Shown here piece by piece: positions 1-7,239 of a stretch of 64,000 bases of DNA. The notes beneath the pieces are model-generated. The model worked only from the letters and a program-made list of their open reading frames with translations, was not told the origin of the DNA and ran no database searches. This DNA is from a candidate division WOR-3 bacterium. Its GTDB lineage: Bacteria > Hydrothermota > Tepidihabitantia > Tepidihabitantales > Tepidihabitantaceae. The stretch is taken from NCBI GenBank assembly GCA_965648905.1, contig CBFGIT010000004.1, forward strand, positions 81,433-145,432, written 5' to 3'. A program made the position numbers and the translations under genes. The first letter of the stretch is position 1; each line of letters begins with the position of its first letter.

Positions 1-957
1 GAGAAGATGTTCCCGCGCGACATCTGCCCGCTCATCAAGTCCACGCTCGGGCTGGCCTTTTCTAAGACCTGTCCGTACGGGCCGCTCAAGAGTTTGGCCG
101 TGGGCGAGACGACCTGCGATGCCAAGAAGAAGACCTGGGAAATCCTTGCCGGCAAGGTGAACTTCCACGTCATGGAGCTGCCACAGAAGAAGGACGCAAT
201 CGACTTCGAGCTCTGGCGCAACGCAGTGCGGGAGTTCCAGTCGAAGCTGGAAGACCTGTCCGGCACCAAGGTCACCAAAGAAGCGCTGGGCGAGTCGATT
301 CGGGTCATGAACAACAAGCGCCGGGCTTTGCAGGAGCTGGCCGAGCTGCGCAAGACCAGCCCGCCGCCGATTTCCGGGCTCGATGCTTTAGTCGTGATGC
401 AGGCAGCACTGTCGGATGAACCGGTGCGCTTCACTGCGGCCGTGAATCGGCTCAACGCCGAGCTGGTGCAGCGACGGGAAGACGGATTCTCGCCGGTCGC
501 CAGGAATGCAAGGCGGATAATGATTGCCGGCTGCCCTTCGGTGATGGGCAACTGGAAAGTCCACTCGCTCATTGAGCAGTCCGGTGCGGTCATCGTCCAT
601 GACGAAACCTGCACCGGCTCGCGTTACTTCGAGCACCTGATCGACGAGACCGCCCGAGACCTTGAAGGTCAGGTGAATGCCGTTGCCGACCGGTACATGA
701 AGATCGACTGCGCCTGTTTCACGCCCAACAAGGAGCGCATCGATTCGGTGGTGCAGAAGGCAAAGGAGTACAACGTCCAGGGCGTCGTGCAGTACGTGCT
801 TCAGACCTGCCACGGTTACAATATCGAAGCGATGCGCGTCGAAGCAGCGCTAAAGGCGGCAAACGTGCCAAGTCTGAAAATCGTCACCGACTACTCGGAA
901 GAAGACGCGGGGCAGTTGCGCACGCGGATCGAGGCGTTTGTCGAGCAACTCGGCTAG
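1..957 (+). CDS. 2-hydroxyacyl-CoA dehydratase family / double-cubane-cluster-type reductase (5'-truncated by window edge)
   Basis: Motifs RDICPLIKS, GETTCDAKKK, DETCTG, IDCACFTPN, LQTCHGYNIE, TDYS...TRIEAF; frame is open to position 1; followed by an activase gene. Confidence 0.85.
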   Translation, partial: EKMFPRDICPLIKSTLGLAFSKTCPYGPLKSLAVGETTCDAKKKTWEILAGKVNFHVMELPQKKDAIDFELWRNAVREFQSKLEDLSGTKVTKEALGESIRVMNNKRRALQELAELRKTSPPPISGLDALVVMQAALSDEPVRFTAAVNRLNAELVQRREDGFSPVARNARRIMIAGCPSVMGNWKVHSLIEQSGAVIVHDETCTGSRYFEHLIDETARDLEGQVNAVADRYMKIDCACFTPNKERIDSVVQKAKEYNVQGVVQYVLQTCHGYNIEAMRVEAALKAANVPSLKIVTDYSEEDAGQLRTRIEAFVEQLG

Positions 958-962
958 GAGGT

Positions 963-1727
963 CTTGTCAGGTCAGTTGGCATCGACATCGGCTCGCGCAC
1001 GACCAAGGTCGTGGTGCTTGAAGACGGCAGGCCGGTCCACTCGTGCGTCGCCGATACCGGCACCGACCCGCTCGGCGTTGCTCAGCGCCTGCTCGCTGAG
1101 GCCGGTACTGACCGGTTGGCACGTGTCATCGCCACCGGCTATGGCCGACACCTGGTCCGTGAGCACCTGGGCTGCACCGTCGTGACCGAGATAAGGGCCC
1201 ACGCGCTCGGCGCGAGCCGGCTATTCCCTGCCTGCCACACGGTAATTGACGTCGGCGGACAGGACAGCAAGGTGATAAGAGTCTCCGCGGGGAAGCAAGC
1301 AAACTTCGAGATGAACGACCGGTGCGCTGCCGGCACCGGTCGTTTCCTCGAAGTGATGGCCACGGCCCTGGGCTACACCCTGGCCGAGTTCGGTCGGGCT
1401 GCGCTCGAAGCCCCAAGCTCAGTGACCGTGAACTCGATGTGCACGGTCTTCTCCGAGTCCGAAGTAGTTTCGCTCATTGCCCGGGGTGCGGACAAGCACG
1501 CGATCGCTTGCGGTCTGCACGAGTCGATTGTTGACCGGCTGCTCGCCCTGGTCGGCCGGGTTGGAGCAGAGCCGGAAGTGGTCCTCTCCGGCGGTGTGGC
1601 ACTTAACCCATGCATCCGAACGTTGCTCGAAAGCCGGCTCGGGGTCCGGCTTCTGGTGCCGGACCGGCCGCAACTTGTCGGCGCGATTGGTGCGGCGCTG
1701 AGTGTGAATGGAGCAACGGCCGTATGA
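963..1727 (+). CDS. Acyl-CoA dehydratase activase (BadF/BadG/BcrA/BcrD ATPase, [4Fe-4S])
   Basis: In-frame GIDIGSRTTK upstream of the track start at 1011; ATGYGR, IDVGGQDSK, MNDRCAAGTGRF, SMCTVF, SGGVA; exact start codon unclear. Confidence 0.9.
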   Translation, partial: LVRSVGIDIGSRTTKVVVLEDGRPVHSCVADTGTDPLGVAQRLLAEAGTDRLARVIATGYGRHLVREHLGCTVVTEIRAHALGASRLFPACHTVIDVGGQDSKVIRVSAGKQANFEMNDRCAAGTGRFLEVMATALGYTLAEFGRAALEAPSSVTVNSMCTVFSESEVVSLIARGADKHAIACGLHESIVDRLLALVGRVGAEPEVVLSGGVALNPCIRTLLESRLGVRLLVPDRPQLVGAIGAALSVNGATAV

Positions 1728-1770
1728 ACGGCGTGCGCTATCTCTTTACACTCGGCCGGAGGTGGAACTC

Positions 1771-1950
1771 GTGACTCACGCTGCAAAGGGAGGCAGTCTG
1801 CCTTCCGCGACCGAAGTCCGCCGTGCAGTACCAATCGCGCTGCTGGTTGCCGGGCTAGTCTGCCTGGGAATCGCCACTCTCCTGCAACAATGGGCTCTTG
1901 TCCACCAAGTGAGTACCAGTATATGACTGCCGTGCATGGGCCTGGTTTAG
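1771..1950 (+). CDS. Small membrane selenoprotein with C-terminal UxxC (resembles the CD1871A-type CxxC small protein family), 59 aa
   Basis: GGAGGT RBS at 1758-1763, GTG 1771, one TM segment, in-frame TGA 1924-1926 read as Sec gives ...STSI-U-LPCMGLV, TAG 1948-1950; SECIS-like hairpin follows. Confidence 0.8.
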
Positions 1951-1954
1951 GCCC
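1938..1954 (+). promoter_or_regulatory. Candidate bacterial SECIS element
   Basis: GGGCCT-GGTTT-AGGCCC perfect hairpin starting 11 nt after the in-frame TGA. Confidence 0.75.
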
Positions 1955-2005
1955 CAAACCCGCTGTCGGAAGTCCGGCAGCACATGTTCCTGAAAGGAGG
2001 AACAC

Positions 2006-3802
2006 ATGACACCAAAGGCCGTGATTCAGGTTTTGCTGGCATTGGCTGCCACGGCCAGCGCATCGCACCGGGTGATGGTCATCGAAGACGTCACCGCCAC
2101 CTGGTGCACCTACTGCCCTGGAGCCGCGCGCGGGGCAGACGAGCTCAAGTTCCGGGCGTTCGATTCGGTGGTGGTTATCGGATACCACTCGTCCTCAAGC
2201 GACCCGTTCTATACCGCAACCGCGGCCGCCCGTATGAGCTACTACGGAGTAACGGGATATCCGACCGTGGTGCTCGACGGCTCCAACTCGATTGTCGGTG
2301 GTCTGCACACCGGTACGATGTACCCGACCTATCGTCAGTACTTTGACTACCGGAAAACCGTTCCGACGCCGCTCGAAATCGACCTGTCGGTTGCCTACGA
2401 TTCAGTGAGCCGTAACGGTACTCTTACCATCGTGGTGCGCAACATCGGTTCGTCCTCAGTCAGCGGCCAGTTGCAGGTCGCGCTCATCGAGAGCCACATC
2501 TACTATCCCTGGCAGGGGATGGACAGCCTGCAGGACGTCGAGCGAACCATGCTGCCAAATGCTTCAGGCGAGGCTATCACAGTCCCGGCCGGAGATTCAG
2601 TCGTTCGTACGCGCAGTTTCAGCATCAACCCGAGCTGGGTTGCGCGCAACTGCGACTTCGTAGTCTTTGTGCAGAACAACACGAATCGCGAGATGTTCCA
2701 GGGCGCGACAATCGCGGTCATCCCCGAGCCAGTGCTTCGGTTCGTCGGTTACCAGTCGGTGCTGCCCGCACCGGGCGGCGAGTTCGACCTGACCGTTGGT
2801 CTGCGCAACATCGGCTCAGCCAATGCTCAGGGCGCAAGCGCCGCGCTCTCAACCACCGACCCGAACGTGACCGTGCTCACCGCGAATGCGAACTTCGGGC
2901 CGATCAGGGTGGCCGAGGACGGTTACGCACAGACGCCGTTTCGCATCAGCGTGTCAAGTGGCTGTCCGGACCCGCATGTCGCCTCAATGCGCCTGGTCGT
3001 CACGGGCTCGGACTTCAGTATCGACACTGTCCTCTTCCCACTCAACATCACCGCGAGCCCGGGCTACTGCGACAACATGGAGTACGGCCAGCATGGCTGG
3101 ACGCACAACGGCATATTGGACAACTGGCACCTGACTACCTATCGCAGCGTGTCGCCGACTCACAGTTGGTACTGCGGCCAGGAAGGCAGCTATCAGTATA
3201 CCAACGAGAATGACGCCCGGCTGATGACGCCTTTCTACACCATCGGGGACTCAACCGCGATGCACTTCCAGCACTACTACGGCACTGAGCTGAACTATGA
3301 CTTCTGCCTGGTGGAAATCGGCAACGGTTCACCCTTCTGGTGGCCGCTCGCGCAGTACAGCGGCTCCTCATCAGGCTGGCAGCAGGCCGACTTCAACCTG
3401 GCCCGGTTCCAGGGGCAGACCGTGCAGGTCCGGTTCCGCTTCATCAGCGACTACAACGTGACCGGCGAAGGATGGTACATCGACGACTTCTGGAGCGGAG
3501 CGCTGACCGGGGTGGCGGAACGGTCGCATGGTCTGGTTCTTTCCACCGGGACAGGCAGCAACCCGTGCCATAAGAATGCGCGGTTGCACTATCAACTGCC
3601 CGCGGGCAGGGACGGCAGCATTGCGGTCTTCGACATCGACGGCCGCGTGGTGCGCTGCCTCAAAAGGTCAGTCACTGGTTCGGGTCGGGCCGACTGGAAC
3701 CTTGCCGATGACCTCGGACAGCCGGTAGGAAACGGGACCTACTTTGTCCGACTGAAGTCAGGCGACGCTGCTCAGACCGTGAAGCTCGCCGTAGTCAGGT
3801 AG
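2006..3802 (+). CDS. Secreted Omp28-like thioredoxin-fold protein with Ig/beta-sandwich domains and T9SS/FlgD-like C-terminal domain
   Basis: Signal peptide; EDVTATWCTYCP, GYPTVVLDG, VVFVQN; GWYIDD; C-terminal NGTYFVRL...KLAVVR; RBS AAAGGAGG. Confidence 0.8.
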   Translation: MTPKAVIQVLLALAATASASHRVMVIEDVTATWCTYCPGAARGADELKFRAFDSVVVIGYHSSSSDPFYTATAAARMSYYGVTGYPTVVLDGSNSIVGGLHTGTMYPTYRQYFDYRKTVPTPLEIDLSVAYDSVSRNGTLTIVVRNIGSSSVSGQLQVALIESHIYYPWQGMDSLQDVERTMLPNASGEAITVPAGDSVVRTRSFSINPSWVARNCDFVVFVQNNTNREMFQGATIAVIPEPVLRFVGYQSVLPAPGGEFDLTVGLRNIGSANAQGASAALSTTDPNVTVLTANANFGPIRVAEDGYAQTPFRISVSSGCPDPHVASMRLVVTGSDFSIDTVLFPLNITASPGYCDNMEYGQHGWTHNGILDNWHLTTYRSVSPTHSWYCGQEGSYQYTNENDARLMTPFYTIGDSTAMHFQHYYGTELNYDFCLVEIGNGSPFWWPLAQYSGSSSGWQQADFNLARFQGQTVQVRFRFISDYNVTGEGWYIDDFWSGALTGVAERSHGLVLSTGTGSNPCHKNARLHYQLPAGRDGSIAVFDIDGRVVRCLKRSVTGSGRADWNLADDLGQPVGNGTYFVRLKSGDAAQTVKLAVVR

Positions 3803-3809
3803 GAGAACG

Positions 3810-4604
3810 ATGTCTTTGTCAGTGGCGACCAGAGCCCTTGGTCTGGCCTCCTTTCTGGGCCTGGTCGCCCTGACCGGATGTTCTTCTGCGCCCGAGGTGT
3901 CGATTATCCCGACCAACCGCGTGGTGCTGGCTGAGCTCTTTACCTGGCAGCGCTGTTCCTACTGCCCCTATGCTGCGCGCACGCTCGACAGTCTGGCCCG
4001 TGAGTTCGCAGACAGCGTGGTCGTGGTAGCGTATCACCGCCGGGTTGCGGGTGATACGCTCTCGCCCGAGTACGTCGAGGAACGACGGGCCTACTACTAC
4101 GACCAGGGCGGCGAACCGGCCACGGTCTTTGACGGCGGACCGCCGGTGCGCACACCCGGGCCTGAGCACAACTACGCGACTTTCCGCAACTACATCTTGG
4201 CCGCAAAGAGCGTGACGCCCAAGGTCCAGCTCGACCTTGCCGCGGAGCTTGACTCGCTCGAAGGCACGGTCACGGTTGCGGCGCGCGGCGTCGACTCGAC
4301 ACCATCAGATACTCTGCAACTGTTTGTTGTGCTGGTTGAGGACAGCGTGCGCAAAGACCTGCCCGGCGCGACTGATTCGGTGTTCAACAGCGTCATGCGG
4401 GCGATGCTGCCTGGCCCGACCGGGCGACCGATTCGGCTCACACGACTGGATACGCTGACGGTCAAAGAGTCGTTCCCTCTTAACCAGAAGTGGAACCGCG
4501 CGCGGCTCGGGGTAGTGGCGTTTGTCCAGCACCCGACCACGCAACAGGTCCTGCAGGCGGCCGCCATCCACAGACTCGCAGATACGAAAGGAGTCCAACA
4601 ATGA
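3810..4604 (+). CDS. Omp28-like CxxC lipoprotein
   Basis: Lipobox LTGC; VLAELFTWQRCSYCP; VVAFVQ. Confidence 0.75.
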   Translation: MSLSVATRALGLASFLGLVALTGCSSAPEVSIIPTNRVVLAELFTWQRCSYCPYAARTLDSLAREFADSVVVVAYHRRVAGDTLSPEYVEERRAYYYDQGGEPATVFDGGPPVRTPGPEHNYATFRNYILAAKSVTPKVQLDLAAELDSLEGTVTVAARGVDSTPSDTLQLFVVLVEDSVRKDLPGATDSVFNSVMRAMLPGPTGRPIRLTRLDTLTVKESFPLNQKWNRARLGVVAFVQHPTTQQVLQAAAIHRLADTKGVQQ

Positions 4605-5272
4605 ACCACTCGACACTGAGGCTCTATTTCCTGGTTCTGGCAACAGGTGTCTTCCTTACCGACGCAACGGCGTTCTCTTCGCCGTTCAGTCTGGTCTGCC
4701 GCTCTGACACCGTGCAGCAGGTAGAACCAGGCGGCCAGTCCGAGTTTCATTTCACCTTGACCAACACCGGCACGCAGCCAGACGTCTACCGGCTTGACTA
4801 CCGTGTGCTCGACAGCGTACCCGGCTGGATTGTAGTCTGCTGCGTGCGCGGCCGATGCGCTGAGCCGGGCGTGCCGTTCTTCGACACGCTGGCACCGGGC
4901 GAGGCGGACTCCTCGCCCGACCTGACCGTGTACACCAACTCGACCCACGGCGAAGAGGTCGTCAATCTCAAAGTAACGTCACTGGGCGAGCCGCAGATGG
5001 TGGACTCAATCAGTACGCGTACACGCGTGGGCGCGGGCGTTGCTGAGCCGGGCCGCTCCTCCCGGGCTTGCCGGATTCAGCCCGCAGCGCGCGTCGTGCG
5101 TGACATGCTCTTGCTGGATGCTGAATGCTCGCCAGCCGTGTTGCTCGATGCCTGCGGCCGCAGTGTTCTCAGCCTGACCAGCGGCCCAAACCGAATTGCG
5201 CGGCTCGCCCCCGGCGTGTACTTCGTGCGCCCGACCGACCACAGACCGGGCGCAAAGGTCGTAGTGAACTAA
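4601..5272 (+). CDS. Secreted hypothetical protein, Ig-like domain plus short CTD
   Basis: ATG 4601 after AAAGGAG, overlapping the upstream stop; signal peptide; FTLTNTG; C-terminal LAPGVYFV...KVVVN. Confidence 0.7.
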   Translation: MNHSTLRLYFLVLATGVFLTDATAFSSPFSLVCRSDTVQQVEPGGQSEFHFTLTNTGTQPDVYRLDYRVLDSVPGWIVVCCVRGRCAEPGVPFFDTLAPGEADSSPDLTVYTNSTHGEEVVNLKVTSLGEPQMVDSISTRTRVGAGVAEPGRSSRACRIQPAARVVRDMLLLDAECSPAVLLDACGRSVLSLTSGPNRIARLAPGVYFVRPTDHRPGAKVVVN

Positions 5273-5311: not shown

Positions 5312-5578
5312 GTGACTACAGGAACGCGGCCCGGCAGGGTTCCTGCCGGCTCCTGCGAACCGGACGGCGTCGAGTTGGCCTTTGCGTCGGTGCGCGAGTT
5401 GCTGCGTGCCGGCGAGCTGCTCAGGTCGGCAGGCTTTGACGTACTGGTAGTCCCGCGCCGCGTTCCGGATTGCGGGGCGCTGCTGCTTCTCCCGCGTCGG
5501 TCGGTTGAGGCCGCACTCGCCTTGCTTGCAGCGCACTCAATTTCGCCCGTTGAGGAGGTGAATCATGAGCGACAGTAG
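5312..5578 (+). CDS. DUF3343-like protein (selenium-metabolism associated)
   Basis: LAFASVRELLRAGELL...VVPRRVPDCG pattern; lies directly before yedF. Confidence 0.6.
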   Translation: MTTGTRPGRVPAGSCEPDGVELAFASVRELLRAGELLRSAGFDVLVVPRRVPDCGALLLLPRRSVEAALALLAAHSISPVEEVNHERQ

Positions 5579-6176
5579 TTCTGGACCGCAGAAACCAGCA
5601 GTGGAGCTTGATGTCCGCGGACTTGTCTGCCCGGAGCCGGTGGTAAGAACAAGAAAGGCTTTGGAAAGCGCCACGGTGGGAACGGTCGTGACCGTTACGA
5701 CCGACAGCCCGGAGTCCCGGGACAACATCATTCGGTTTGCCCGGCGCTCAGGATGTCCGGCCGTGACCGAAGAAACAAAGTCGGGCGTCTTCATTGTTCG
5801 CATCACCAAGGCCAGTGTCCCCGGGCCGGTCTGCACGCGAACCGGCACAACCGTACTCGTTACATCAGAACGACTCGGTTCCGGTGACGACAAGCTGGGC
5901 AACCTGCTCATGACCCTGTTCCTGCGTACCCTGACCGAGCTGCCTTCACGACCATCGATTCTGGCGCTGATGAACGGCGGTATCAAACTGGCCTTGTCCG
6001 ACTCGGAGCATCTTCCGTCGCTGCGTAGCCTGGCTGACCAGGGTGTCAAGGTGATGGTCTGCGGCACCTGCCTTGATTTCTTCGGGGTCAAGGACCGCGT
6101 GTCGGTCGGCACTGTCTCCAACATGTACGAACTGGCCGAATCACTCGCGGCCGCCGAGAAGGTCATCGTACTCTAA
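5565..6176 (+). CDS. yedF: Sulfurtransferase-like selenium metabolism protein YedF (TusA + DsrE domains)
   Basis: LDVRGLVCPEPVV, LGSGDDKLG..LM, CGTCLDFF, VGTVSNMY. Confidence 0.9.
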   Translation: MSDSSSGPQKPAVELDVRGLVCPEPVVRTRKALESATVGTVVTVTTDSPESRDNIIRFARRSGCPAVTEETKSGVFIVRITKASVPGPVCTRTGTTVLVTSERLGSGDDKLGNLLMTLFLRTLTELPSRPSILALMNGGIKLALSDSEHLPSLRSLADQGVKVMVCGTCLDFFGVKDRVSVGTVSNMYELAESLAAAEKVIVL

Positions 6177-6189
6177 TCCAGGAGGAATC

Positions 6190-7239
6190 TTGAAGCGTCG
6201 TCTGCTCGACTACGCCAAGGCCGCGGGCTGAGCGGCCAAGGTCTGCCAGGAAGACCTGGCGCAGGTACTGCGTCAGCTTCCTGCCTTCTCGCATCCTGAC
6301 CTCCTGGTCGGCGGCGAGACCTCGGACGACGCCGGCGTGTACCGGCTCGACCCGGAACGCGCGCTCGTCTTGACCGTGGACGTGCTCACGCCGATTGCCG
6401 ACGACCCCTATGTCTTCGGCCAGATTGCCGCGGCCAACTCGCTATCCGACGTGTATGCCATGGGCGGCACGCCGGTCGCGGCCCTGAGCATCATCACCTT
6501 TCCGGTCGGCGAGATTGCGCATGACGACGTGCGGGCGATGCTCGCGGGCGCTTGGGACAAGGTGCGTGAGGCCGAAGCGGTCATCGCCGGCGGCCACACG
6601 CTCAAGGATGTCGAGGTCAAGTGCGGGCTTTCGGTCACCGGCCTGGTCCACCCGGACCGGGTGGTGAAGAACGTTGGCGCCAGACCCGGCGACACGCTGG
6701 TCCTTACCAAGCCACTCGGCACCGGTATCATCACCACTGCCTTGCGGGTCGACCTCGCGCCGGCGTCCGCAGTCGCTGAGGCAAACCGAGTGATGACAAC
6801 GCTGAACCGGGCTGCGGCTCGGGCCATGTGCGAGACCGGAGTTCATGCCGCGACCGATATCACCGGGTTCGGCCTGCTTGGCCATGCCTGGGAAATGGCG
6901 CAGACCGGCGACATAGACATCGTCATCGAAGCAGAACAGGTTCCGCTCATACCCGGGGCGCTGGACCTGGCTGGAGAGTCGCTCTTTCCTGCCGGCTCGC
7001 TTAAGAACTGCGACTTCATGAAATCGCGGGCCGACTTTGCTCCGTCCGTACCTGAAGACCGGCGCCTGCTCCTGTGCGATGCCCAGACATCAGGCGGGCT
7101 GCTCATGTCTGTTCCGGAAGCCCGGGCTGATTCGCTGCTGAACCGGCTTCACGATGCGGGTGTCCAAGAAGCCGCTGTTATCGGCCGGGTCCGGGAAGGT
7201 TCTGGCCGGATTCAGGTCACCTGGACTCCCCAACTGTGA
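6190..7239 (+). CDS. selD: Selenide, water dikinase (selenophosphate synthetase), itself a selenoprotein
   Basis: RBS AGGAGG, TTG 6190, MKRRLLDYAKAAG-U(TGA 6229-6231)-AAK in frame with DDAGVY, ANSLSDVYAMGG, GGHT, LTKPLG, TDITGFGL, DAQTSGGLL. Confidence 0.95.
6235..6260 (+). promoter_or_regulatory. Candidate SECIS hairpin of selD
   Basis: GCC(A)AGGTCT...AGACCTGGC stem, or alternatively GCCAGG-AAGA-CCTGGC, directly after the TGA. Confidence 0.55.

Follow-up and report, generated by a model that had tools for sequence, protein, structure and literature searches.

The question raised by this locus is whether an in-frame TGA ends a very small protein or encodes selenocysteine (Sec, U). The locus lies in a window of 64,000 nucleotides (the whole stretch analyzed; positions 81,433 to 145,432 of contig CBFGIT010000004.1, assembly GCA_965648905.1) from a candidate division WOR-3 bacterium. 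Under translation table 11 the frame of the small gene closes at TGA 1924-1926, directly after Ile-51. The original prediction held that readthrough of this codon gives I-U-L-P-C-M-G-L-V followed by a stop, and that the product is a Sec variant of the CD1871A family that standard annotation would miss. Recoded translation with TGA as Sec confirmed the readthrough product, VTHAAKGGSLPSATEVRRAVPIALLVAGLVCLGIATLLQQWALVHQVSTSI-U-LPCMGLV, which starts VTHAAKGG and is followed by TAG 1948-1950. It has a variable N-terminal stretch predicted to be cytoplasmic, one predicted membrane helix, and a tail of 22 residues that closes with U-L-P-C-M-G-L-V. Comparison with homologs indicates that UGA 1924-1926 almost certainly encodes Sec. 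The best explanation of the locus as a whole is very probably that of a real Sec-decoded small membrane protein, a CD1871A-like paralog whose tail may be a redox center.

The spacing between the ribosome-binding site and the start codon, which had been described as good, is 5 nt from the AGGTGG core (1760-1765) to the GTG at 1771-1773. A start at ATG 1708, which would mean a 20-nt overlap with the upstream gene and lacks a clear ribosome-binding site, is less likely than GTG 1771. A ..PEVELV.. stretch is also found upstream of the same-genus ortholog (locus L017).

Homologs were sought by a six-frame search of 61 related genomes with the recoded protein as query (E ≤ 10). Matches were found in 39 of the 61 genomes and in 33 of the 36 within the same family. 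Many of them reach residue 58-59 with one TGA inside, and others are free of stops. Sixty loci were fetched and 54 members were kept; those dropped either contained a different small open reading frame (L043, L048, and L058, E 0.009-0.06) or had no tail motif (L075), and L020 and L074, which are one place (G004) with a Cys form and a TGA stop, stand outside the 54. All 54 members end in [U/C]xxCxG, with TGA in 38 and TGC or TGT in 16 at a single column, and C38(U), C41, and G43 are invariant in the alignment (A1). The homologs thus do not end at the TGA, the outcome that had been named as counting against the original prediction; the xxCxG(L)(V) tail is conserved beyond it.

Codons past the UGA were counted in the 36 Sec forms whose tail is eight codons long. 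Leucine is encoded by CTG (17), CTA (8), CTT (6), CTC (3), and TTA (1); serine by TCC (24), TCG (5), and TCT (3); cysteine by TGC (28) and TGT (8); and glycine by GGC (14), GGG (14), and GGT (8). Methionine follows the second Cys in 35 of the 36. This synonymous variation at constant amino acids indicates that the region is translated and is not 3' untranslated region (UTR). Separately, three Cys forms (L044 and L047, both of genus g18, and G004:C1:18566-18733) end ..CLSCMGLG or ..CLSCMGLV and are followed by TGA, which in these genes is a genuine stop, 8-9 codons past the Cys that is Sec-UGA elsewhere.

The hairpin GGGCCT/AGGCCC, predicted to begin 11 nt past the UGA as a Sec insertion sequence (SECIS)-like element, was found at 1938-1954. 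Its 5' arm is formed by the Gly-Leu-Val codons and its 3' arm by the TAG stop and four bases of the 3' UTR. The minimal E. coli SECIS begins 11 nt after the UGA. As in Sec insertion of the E. coli fdhF type, the element at this locus would combine a UGA with a SECIS hairpin for SelB that has a small apical loop with G first; it differs in that the stem is only 6-7 bp and the element reaches from the last three sense codons through the stop into the 3' UTR. The loop is GUU or GGUUU (3-5 nt) and the distance from the UGA to the loop is 17-18 nt. The published bacterial consensus allows a loop of 3-9 nt with G in its two initial positions, a stem of 4-16 bp, a UGA-to-loop distance of 16-37 nt, and a minimum free energy of at most −7.5 (PMC13188914, Fig. 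2 legend), and the hairpin falls within each of these limits.

Covariation was examined in an alignment of the 38 Sec forms (A2; 37 distinct rows, a six-pair helix, 222 cells). Pairing in the helix was 95.0% of the 222 cells against 84.0 ± 1.4% in shuffles, with none of 500 shuffles as high, and slid partners gave 28.5-64.9%. At pair 24-34, which joins the third base of the Gly codon to a 3' UTR base, CG occurs 14 times, GC 14 times, and UA 7 times. By a crude rule (stem ≥ 5 bp, three or more G-C pairs), a hairpin was present in 35 of the 38 Sec forms and in 1 of the 16 Cys forms, where it stands at another spacing. Most Cys forms are directly followed by the ribosome-binding site of their downstream neighbor. 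The SECIS-like nature of the hairpin is thus supported by its fit to the published consensus, its covariation in Sec forms, and its loss in Cys forms. As an intrinsic terminator the hairpin was ruled out, since no T-run follows it.

The stop codon itself is affected. Among the Sec forms with an eight-codon tail, 34 of 36 end in TAG and two in TAA, compared with seven TAG and six TAA in 13 Cys forms, and both Sec genes with TAA carry a compensating U in the 5' arm. TAG is probably kept in the Sec forms because the stop sits in a base-paired stem, so that the pairing of the hairpin appears to fix the identity of the stop codon. The family is in this respect a clean case of a bacterial SECIS built around a stop codon. 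A second hairpin (1962-1981) stands 3' of the small gene, ahead of the ribosome-binding site of its downstream neighbor, and is not followed by a T-run; a similar one is found 3' of the gene in L017, a Sec form, and in L022, a Cys form. It may be separate from the SECIS element.

The genome (3.01 Mb in 60 contigs, 99.6% complete) has the machinery for Sec decoding whose presence had been proposed as a check. It contains one tRNA-Sec (C35:7817-7911; found by aragorn, 72.2 bits on Rfam RF01852), selA (560.5 bits on TIGR00474), and selB (348.4 bits on TIGR00475). The selD gene that had been placed about 4 kb downstream in the same gene run lies 4.3 kb downstream of the small gene on the same strand and itself contains Sec (TGA 6229-6231, AAG-U-AAK). 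A second selD paralog (C8:88010-88963) adjoins selB and has 45% identity to SelD of L112; the genome therefore has two selenophosphate synthetases in different contexts.

The distribution of the family was assessed by a family-profile search in a sample of 201 genomes of the phylum. A member was present in 140 genomes and selA in 67. Among the matches listed, 28 of 150 contain one TGA; these come from 22 genomes, mostly of the window's own family, and all 22 have selA. Lineages without selA have Cys forms only, as in family f18, where a member occurs in 13 of 14 genomes and selA in none of the 14.

The protein database held 176 relatives at E ≤ 0.001. Among the 120 listed, 111 are 36-41 residues long and nine are full-length Cys forms; the five short relatives that were inspected all end ..RFAAQI, that is, at the UGA. 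The 111 relatives cut at the UGA lack the family's only conserved motif, and the expectation that standard annotation would miss such proteins was therefore borne out. The public prediction for a second copy in this genome is likewise a 37-residue fragment (P0037). The database records are named "hypothetical protein" only, three of them from candidate division WOR-3 bacterium, and a protein-atlas query with a natural Cys form found unnamed clusters of about 45 residues whose scores, 0.85-0.86, are too low to count. Selenoproteins of such small size whose Sec stands eight residues before the C terminus are systematically lost by annotation.

The CD1871A family is represented by the NCBIfam model NF040920 (CD1871A family CXXC motif-containing protein; 38 positions, cut-off 32 bits). 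The proposed membership held in part: 39 of the 54 members match the model at E ≤ 1 (best 6.1e-7), but none of those scored individually reaches the cut-off (second copy 27.8 bits, L070 23.8, L018 20.7) and the window copy goes undetected. Against a profile of 26 NapH-linked relatives, however, the window copy scores 34.7 bits, where the maximum for 2000 shuffles was 11.2 bits. It is tied to the CD1871A-type family because its relatives match NF040920 and their profile detects it. Judged from these scores, the protein is a distant branch related to the NF040920 family, not a member by the NCBI threshold, and a diverged paralog of the small CD1871A-like CXXC tail proteins. Like them, it is small, has a single membrane helix in its N-terminal part, and carries a C-terminal tail of the CxxCxG type, and the second copy of this genome lies directly 5' of a NapH-like Fer4_5 polyferredoxin. 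It differs in having Sec for the first Cys and, unlike its NapH-linked relatives, in preceding Omp28-like thioredoxin-fold genes in a selD cluster. In Pfam, the small protein and the 54 members had no match beyond chance-level membrane-helix ones.

Other selenoproteins with Sec near the C terminus were compared. Table 1 of a 2026 inventory (PMC13188914) lists UXX-star (NF041114/NF041211), KCU-star (NF033934), SaoC (NF040734, Cys-Cys-COOH), and TsoA (NF045695, LULAXC-motif); as in the window protein, Sec stands a few residues from the C terminus, and several have a Sec/Cys redox pair (same table). With Sec so placed, the SECIS must extend into the 3' UTR. At E ≤ 1 the 54 members had no match to any of these models, and the tail studied here differs in being U-x-x-C-x-G-L-V on a membrane anchor. 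The eukaryotic proteins SELENOK and SELENOS are also small single-pass membrane selenoproteins with Sec near the C terminus; they have no sequence relationship to the window protein, are oriented toward the cytosol, and depend on a eukaryotic 3' UTR SECIS, and the likeness is one of analogy only.

The name "CD1871A" was not found in the literature searched. Neither NF040920 nor any small membrane U-x-x-C-x-G protein is in Table 1 of PMC13188914 (119 families and subfamilies), and no such protein is mentioned in the passages of PMC2398784, PMC12013277, and PMC13326102 that were available; the supplements of these papers, above all the BSepDB family list (Additional File 1, Table S2 of PMC13326102), could bear on this negative. 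In catalogue terms this counts as a new selenoprotein family; more exactly, it is the Sec form of an uncharacterized small-protein family, with what looks like ordinary bacterial decoding. It adds to the bacterial selenoproteome a family that in one lineage (closest database relatives, candidate division WOR-3) is present as two or three copies per genome. The Sec form also marks the first Cys of the uncharacterized CD1871A-type CxxC tail as the reactive residue.

What the tail might do was considered from topology and gene order. The N-terminal side of the helix is more positive than the C-terminal side in 50 of 52 family members and, by the positive-inside rule, the tail probably faces outward with the N terminus in the cytoplasm. 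Downstream neighbors were counted for 53 members (L025 was left out because its locus ends 11 codons past the gene): 29 are Fer4_5/NapH-like, 18 Omp28-like, one TusA, and one AhpC/TSA, and four have no family. A tree built from the 45-residue tails gathers 25 of the 29 NapH-linked copies into a single clade. Outside it stands the window copy, which groups with the Omp28-linked ortholog of the same genus and with L018, which has a downstream TusA/YedF-like gene. Neighbor labels cluster on the tree, with 10 changes against 21.3 in shuffles.

In the window the small gene is followed by the genes for a 598-residue Omp28 protein, a 264-residue Omp28-like protein, a Cys-rich exported protein, a Se/S-carrier-like protein, YedF, and the Sec-containing SelD. 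The second Sec copy (C1:120731-120865, MKRR..ETIHRFAAQI-U-LSCMGLV), which lies outside the window in locus L076 (C1:116000-126000), stands in a cassette of an Omp28-like protein, a TlpA-like redoxin, DUF6029, the small Sec protein, and a 536-residue NapH-like protein. The two Omp28-like neighbors of the window copy belong, as the small protein does not, to the family of NF045500 (75.1 and 48.7 bits); they differ from its selenoproteins in being Cys forms below the cut-off of 200 bits. NF045500, the Omp28-related selenoprotein, is equated with GOS_C in Table 1 of PMC13188914, and GOS_C is described as having a thioredoxin-like fold with a U/CxxC motif (Zhang and Gladyshev 2008, PMC2398784). Pairing of GOS_C-type proteins with a small membrane U/CxxC protein was not met in the parts of the literature examined. 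Gene order thus ties the tail both to NapH-like membrane polyferredoxins and to the Omp28-related/GOS_C thioredoxin-fold family. From this comes an idea of the way in which these bacteria might move reducing power, or selenium, across the membrane.

Under the best explanation of the locus, Sec-tRNA(Sec) and SelB are recruited by the short hairpin 11 nt past the UGA, and the product is a 59-residue single-pass membrane protein with a predicted cytoplasmic N terminus and the 22-residue U-x-x-C-x-G tail predicted to lie outside. We further propose, tentatively, that the tail may be a selenol/thiol redox center on the outer face of the cytoplasmic membrane. Its exchange partners for selenylsulfide or disulfide would be the exported Omp28-like proteins of thioredoxin fold whose genes directly follow, and reducing power might come via the genome's single NapH-like polyferredoxin, encoded beside the second family copy. 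Replacement by Sec of the first Cys only fits a nucleophilic redox residue. A complex prediction for a Cys-form ortholog pair (Omp28-like protein residues 24-280, alignment A3; small protein, alignment A4) gave no verdict (score 0.00, run without controls) and counts neither for nor against the pairing.

Several points weigh against this account of the locus. With regard to decoding, the outermost pair of the hairpin is open in 7 of the 37 distinct rows; 3 of the 38 Sec forms fail the crude rule but show a 5-bp stem on inspection by eye; the Cys form L024 retains a weak look-alike hairpin, GGUUUG/UAAACC; and the hairpin is short, with a 5' arm that is also under coding constraint. The case for Sec was built from comparisons between genomes and not from the product. 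With regard to family and function, the window copy has no match to NF040920 at E ≤ 10, and its best relative, at 27.8 bits, is under the 32-bit cut-off. The window copy also has no adjoining NapH-like gene, the genome's only one being on another contig beside the second copy. The tree was built from 45 columns, and in it many forks are poorly separated. The proposed partner, electron source, and topology come from neighborhood and charge.

The same gene order allows another function, namely chalcogen trafficking, in which the U-x-x-C tail would take up selenium, or a related metalloid, at the membrane in the form of a selenylsulfide or perselenide and pass it toward YedF, the DUF3343-like carrier, and SelD. 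The Omp28-linked paralog does cluster with selenium genes: selD lies within about 4.5 kb in five of the six Omp28-linked loci examined at length, YedF is present in three loci (the window, L114, and L116), and the weak Se/S-carrier-like protein is encoded at 5312-5578. In four other genera the order is a DVU_1556/ArsM-like methyltransferase, the small gene, Omp28-like genes, an uncharacterized gene, and selD. A methyltransferase of this kind (DVU_1556/arsenite-methyltransferase-like) is found upstream in L112, L113, and L115, overlaps the start of the small gene by a few bases in five Cys-form loci, and has an ortholog just upstream in this genome (C4:80251-81039). However, Sec only at the first Cys of a CxxC is the usual pattern of thiol-disulfide oxidoreductases, 29 of 53 members adjoin a NapH-like iron-sulfur protein and not selenium genes, and the predicted outward tail would be separated by the membrane from cytoplasmic YedF and SelD, which it could then not supply directly. 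We regard trafficking as possible but rather doubtful.

A wider version, which we consider unlikely, would make the small Sec-tailed protein the membrane link of an unrecognized extracytoplasmic pathway for selenium handling. In such a pathway, Omp28-like (GOS_C-type) proteins exported by the type IX secretion system (T9SS) may trap or reduce selenium compounds from the environment; at the outer face, the tail with its Sec/Cys pair may swap electrons or a selenium atom with them; the product may be fed to YedF and the dedicated Sec-containing SelD; and the methyltransferase, corrinoid methyl-transfer proteins, and double-cubane reductase may process methylated or oxidized forms.

A metal-binding role, with Sec and Cys ligating a metal or an iron-sulfur cluster together with the NapH-like polyferredoxin or the Cys-rich exported neighbors, is likewise improbable, and somewhat more so. 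The invariant CxxCxG, the Met that almost always follows the second Cys of the Sec forms (35 of 36), and the iron-sulfur membrane proteins among the neighbors (29 of 53) would be in keeping with it, and metal-binding UxxC and UxxU proteins appear in published selenoprotein lists (PMC13188914, Table 1). Nevertheless, the paralog group of the window copy stands beside thioredoxin-fold CxxC proteins and not beside an iron-sulfur protein, and no metal-binding family in Pfam or NCBIfam matched the small protein.

That the UGA is an ordinary stop, giving a 51-residue peptide with the hairpin serving mRNA stability or termination, can be put aside as highly improbable: the table 11 frame does end at 1926, short forms of 36-41 residues make up 111 of the 120 database relatives listed, and the hairpin is G+C-rich and at the gene end, but a product cut off there would contain neither invariant residue of the family-defining motif, the seven codons past the UGA vary synonymously while their amino acids are conserved, Cys occupies the UGA column in 16 of 54 homologs, TGA forms occur in selA genomes only (22 of 22 among the matches listed), and the hairpin has no T-run.

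The coordinates of the small gene, its signals, and the downstream cluster are given in Table 1.

Table 1. Features of the Sec locus and its downstream neighbors in window coordinates
Feature	Position	Strand	Basis
Ribosome-binding site GGAGGTGG	1757..1765	+	Direct reading; AGGTGG core 1760-1765
Predicted 59-residue selenoprotein, coding sequence	1771..1950	+	GTG to TAG, TGA 1924-1926 = U; 54 homologs
Predicted transmembrane helix V20-L37, RR just before	1828..1881	+	Best 18-residue hydrophobic window, mean Kyte-Doolittle 2.52
Predicted Sec codon UGA, first position of UxxC motif	1924..1926	+	Column with 38 TGA and 16 TGC/TGT
SECIS-type hairpin GGGCCUG-GUU-UAGGCCC	1938..1954	+	Begins 11 nt past UGA; folds at −10.5 kcal/mol alone
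True stop TAG of the recoded frame, within hairpin stem	1948..1950	+	TAG 34, TAA 2 in 36 Sec forms
Second intergenic hairpin GCUGUCGG-AAGU-CCGGCAGC	1962..1981	+	−13.2 kcal/mol
Exported 598-residue protein: signal peptide, TWCTYCP, Omp28, MAM-like domain, T9SS sorting tail	2006..3802	+	Pfam Omp28 9e-18; NF045500 75 bits (cut-off 200); Por_Secre_tail
Second Omp28-like lipoprotein-type thioredoxin-fold protein, 264 residues, WQRCSYCP	3810..4604	+	NF045500 48.7 bits
Weak Se/S-carrier-like protein	5312-5578		
YedF-type selenium metabolism protein (TusA + DsrE)	5565..6176	+	TIGR03527 188.7 bits, cut-off 110
selD, selenophosphate synthetase, start codon not fixed	6190..7239	+	TIGR00476 358 bits (recoded)

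Scans of the surrounding sequence gave little. No promoters were found between 900 and 2300, where the single terminator-like site (1721-1737) is within chance. An Rfam scan of 1600-2100 returned a chance-level SAM-SAH match alone (16.3 bits, E 0.38; gathering score 40); this riboswitch match, at 1664-1715 inside the end of the activase gene, is probably nothing. For window positions 1000-3000 the run index listed no RNA run and one DNA run with 0.23 of the sampled words.

The selD cluster is fuller in several genera (L112 = G003:C2:429000-447000, L114, and L115), where a methyltransferase, the small U/CxxC protein, two Omp28-like proteins, an uncharacterized protein of about 200 residues, YedF in some cases, and SelD are followed by a corrinoid protein, a MtaA/CmuA-type methyltransferase, a RACo-type corrinoid activase, and a double-cubane-cluster reductase. 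In the genome studied here, a double-cubane reductase (NF040772, 395.8 bits) and an activase lie between the methyltransferase and the small gene (C4:80251-82383; window 1-1727). A methyl-transfer system beside selD hints at processing of methylated selenium compounds. Orthologs of the second Omp28-like gene (3810..4604) occupy the same place in L112 and L116.

The Cys-rich protein encoded at 4490-5272 is exported; its start resembles a signal peptide (MNHSTLRLYFLVLATG..), and it contains the motif VVCCVRGRC and ends in a T9SS-like C terminus. It has no Pfam or NCBIfam family; orthologs stand at the same place in the cluster, and it has 45% identity to L112:10982-11566. Finally, at L019:1656-2054 (G019) table 11 gives the Omp28-like gene that follows the small Sec gene an open frame of only 133 codons, although its start looks like that of the 264-residue orthologs, and this gene may contain an in-frame TGA of its own.

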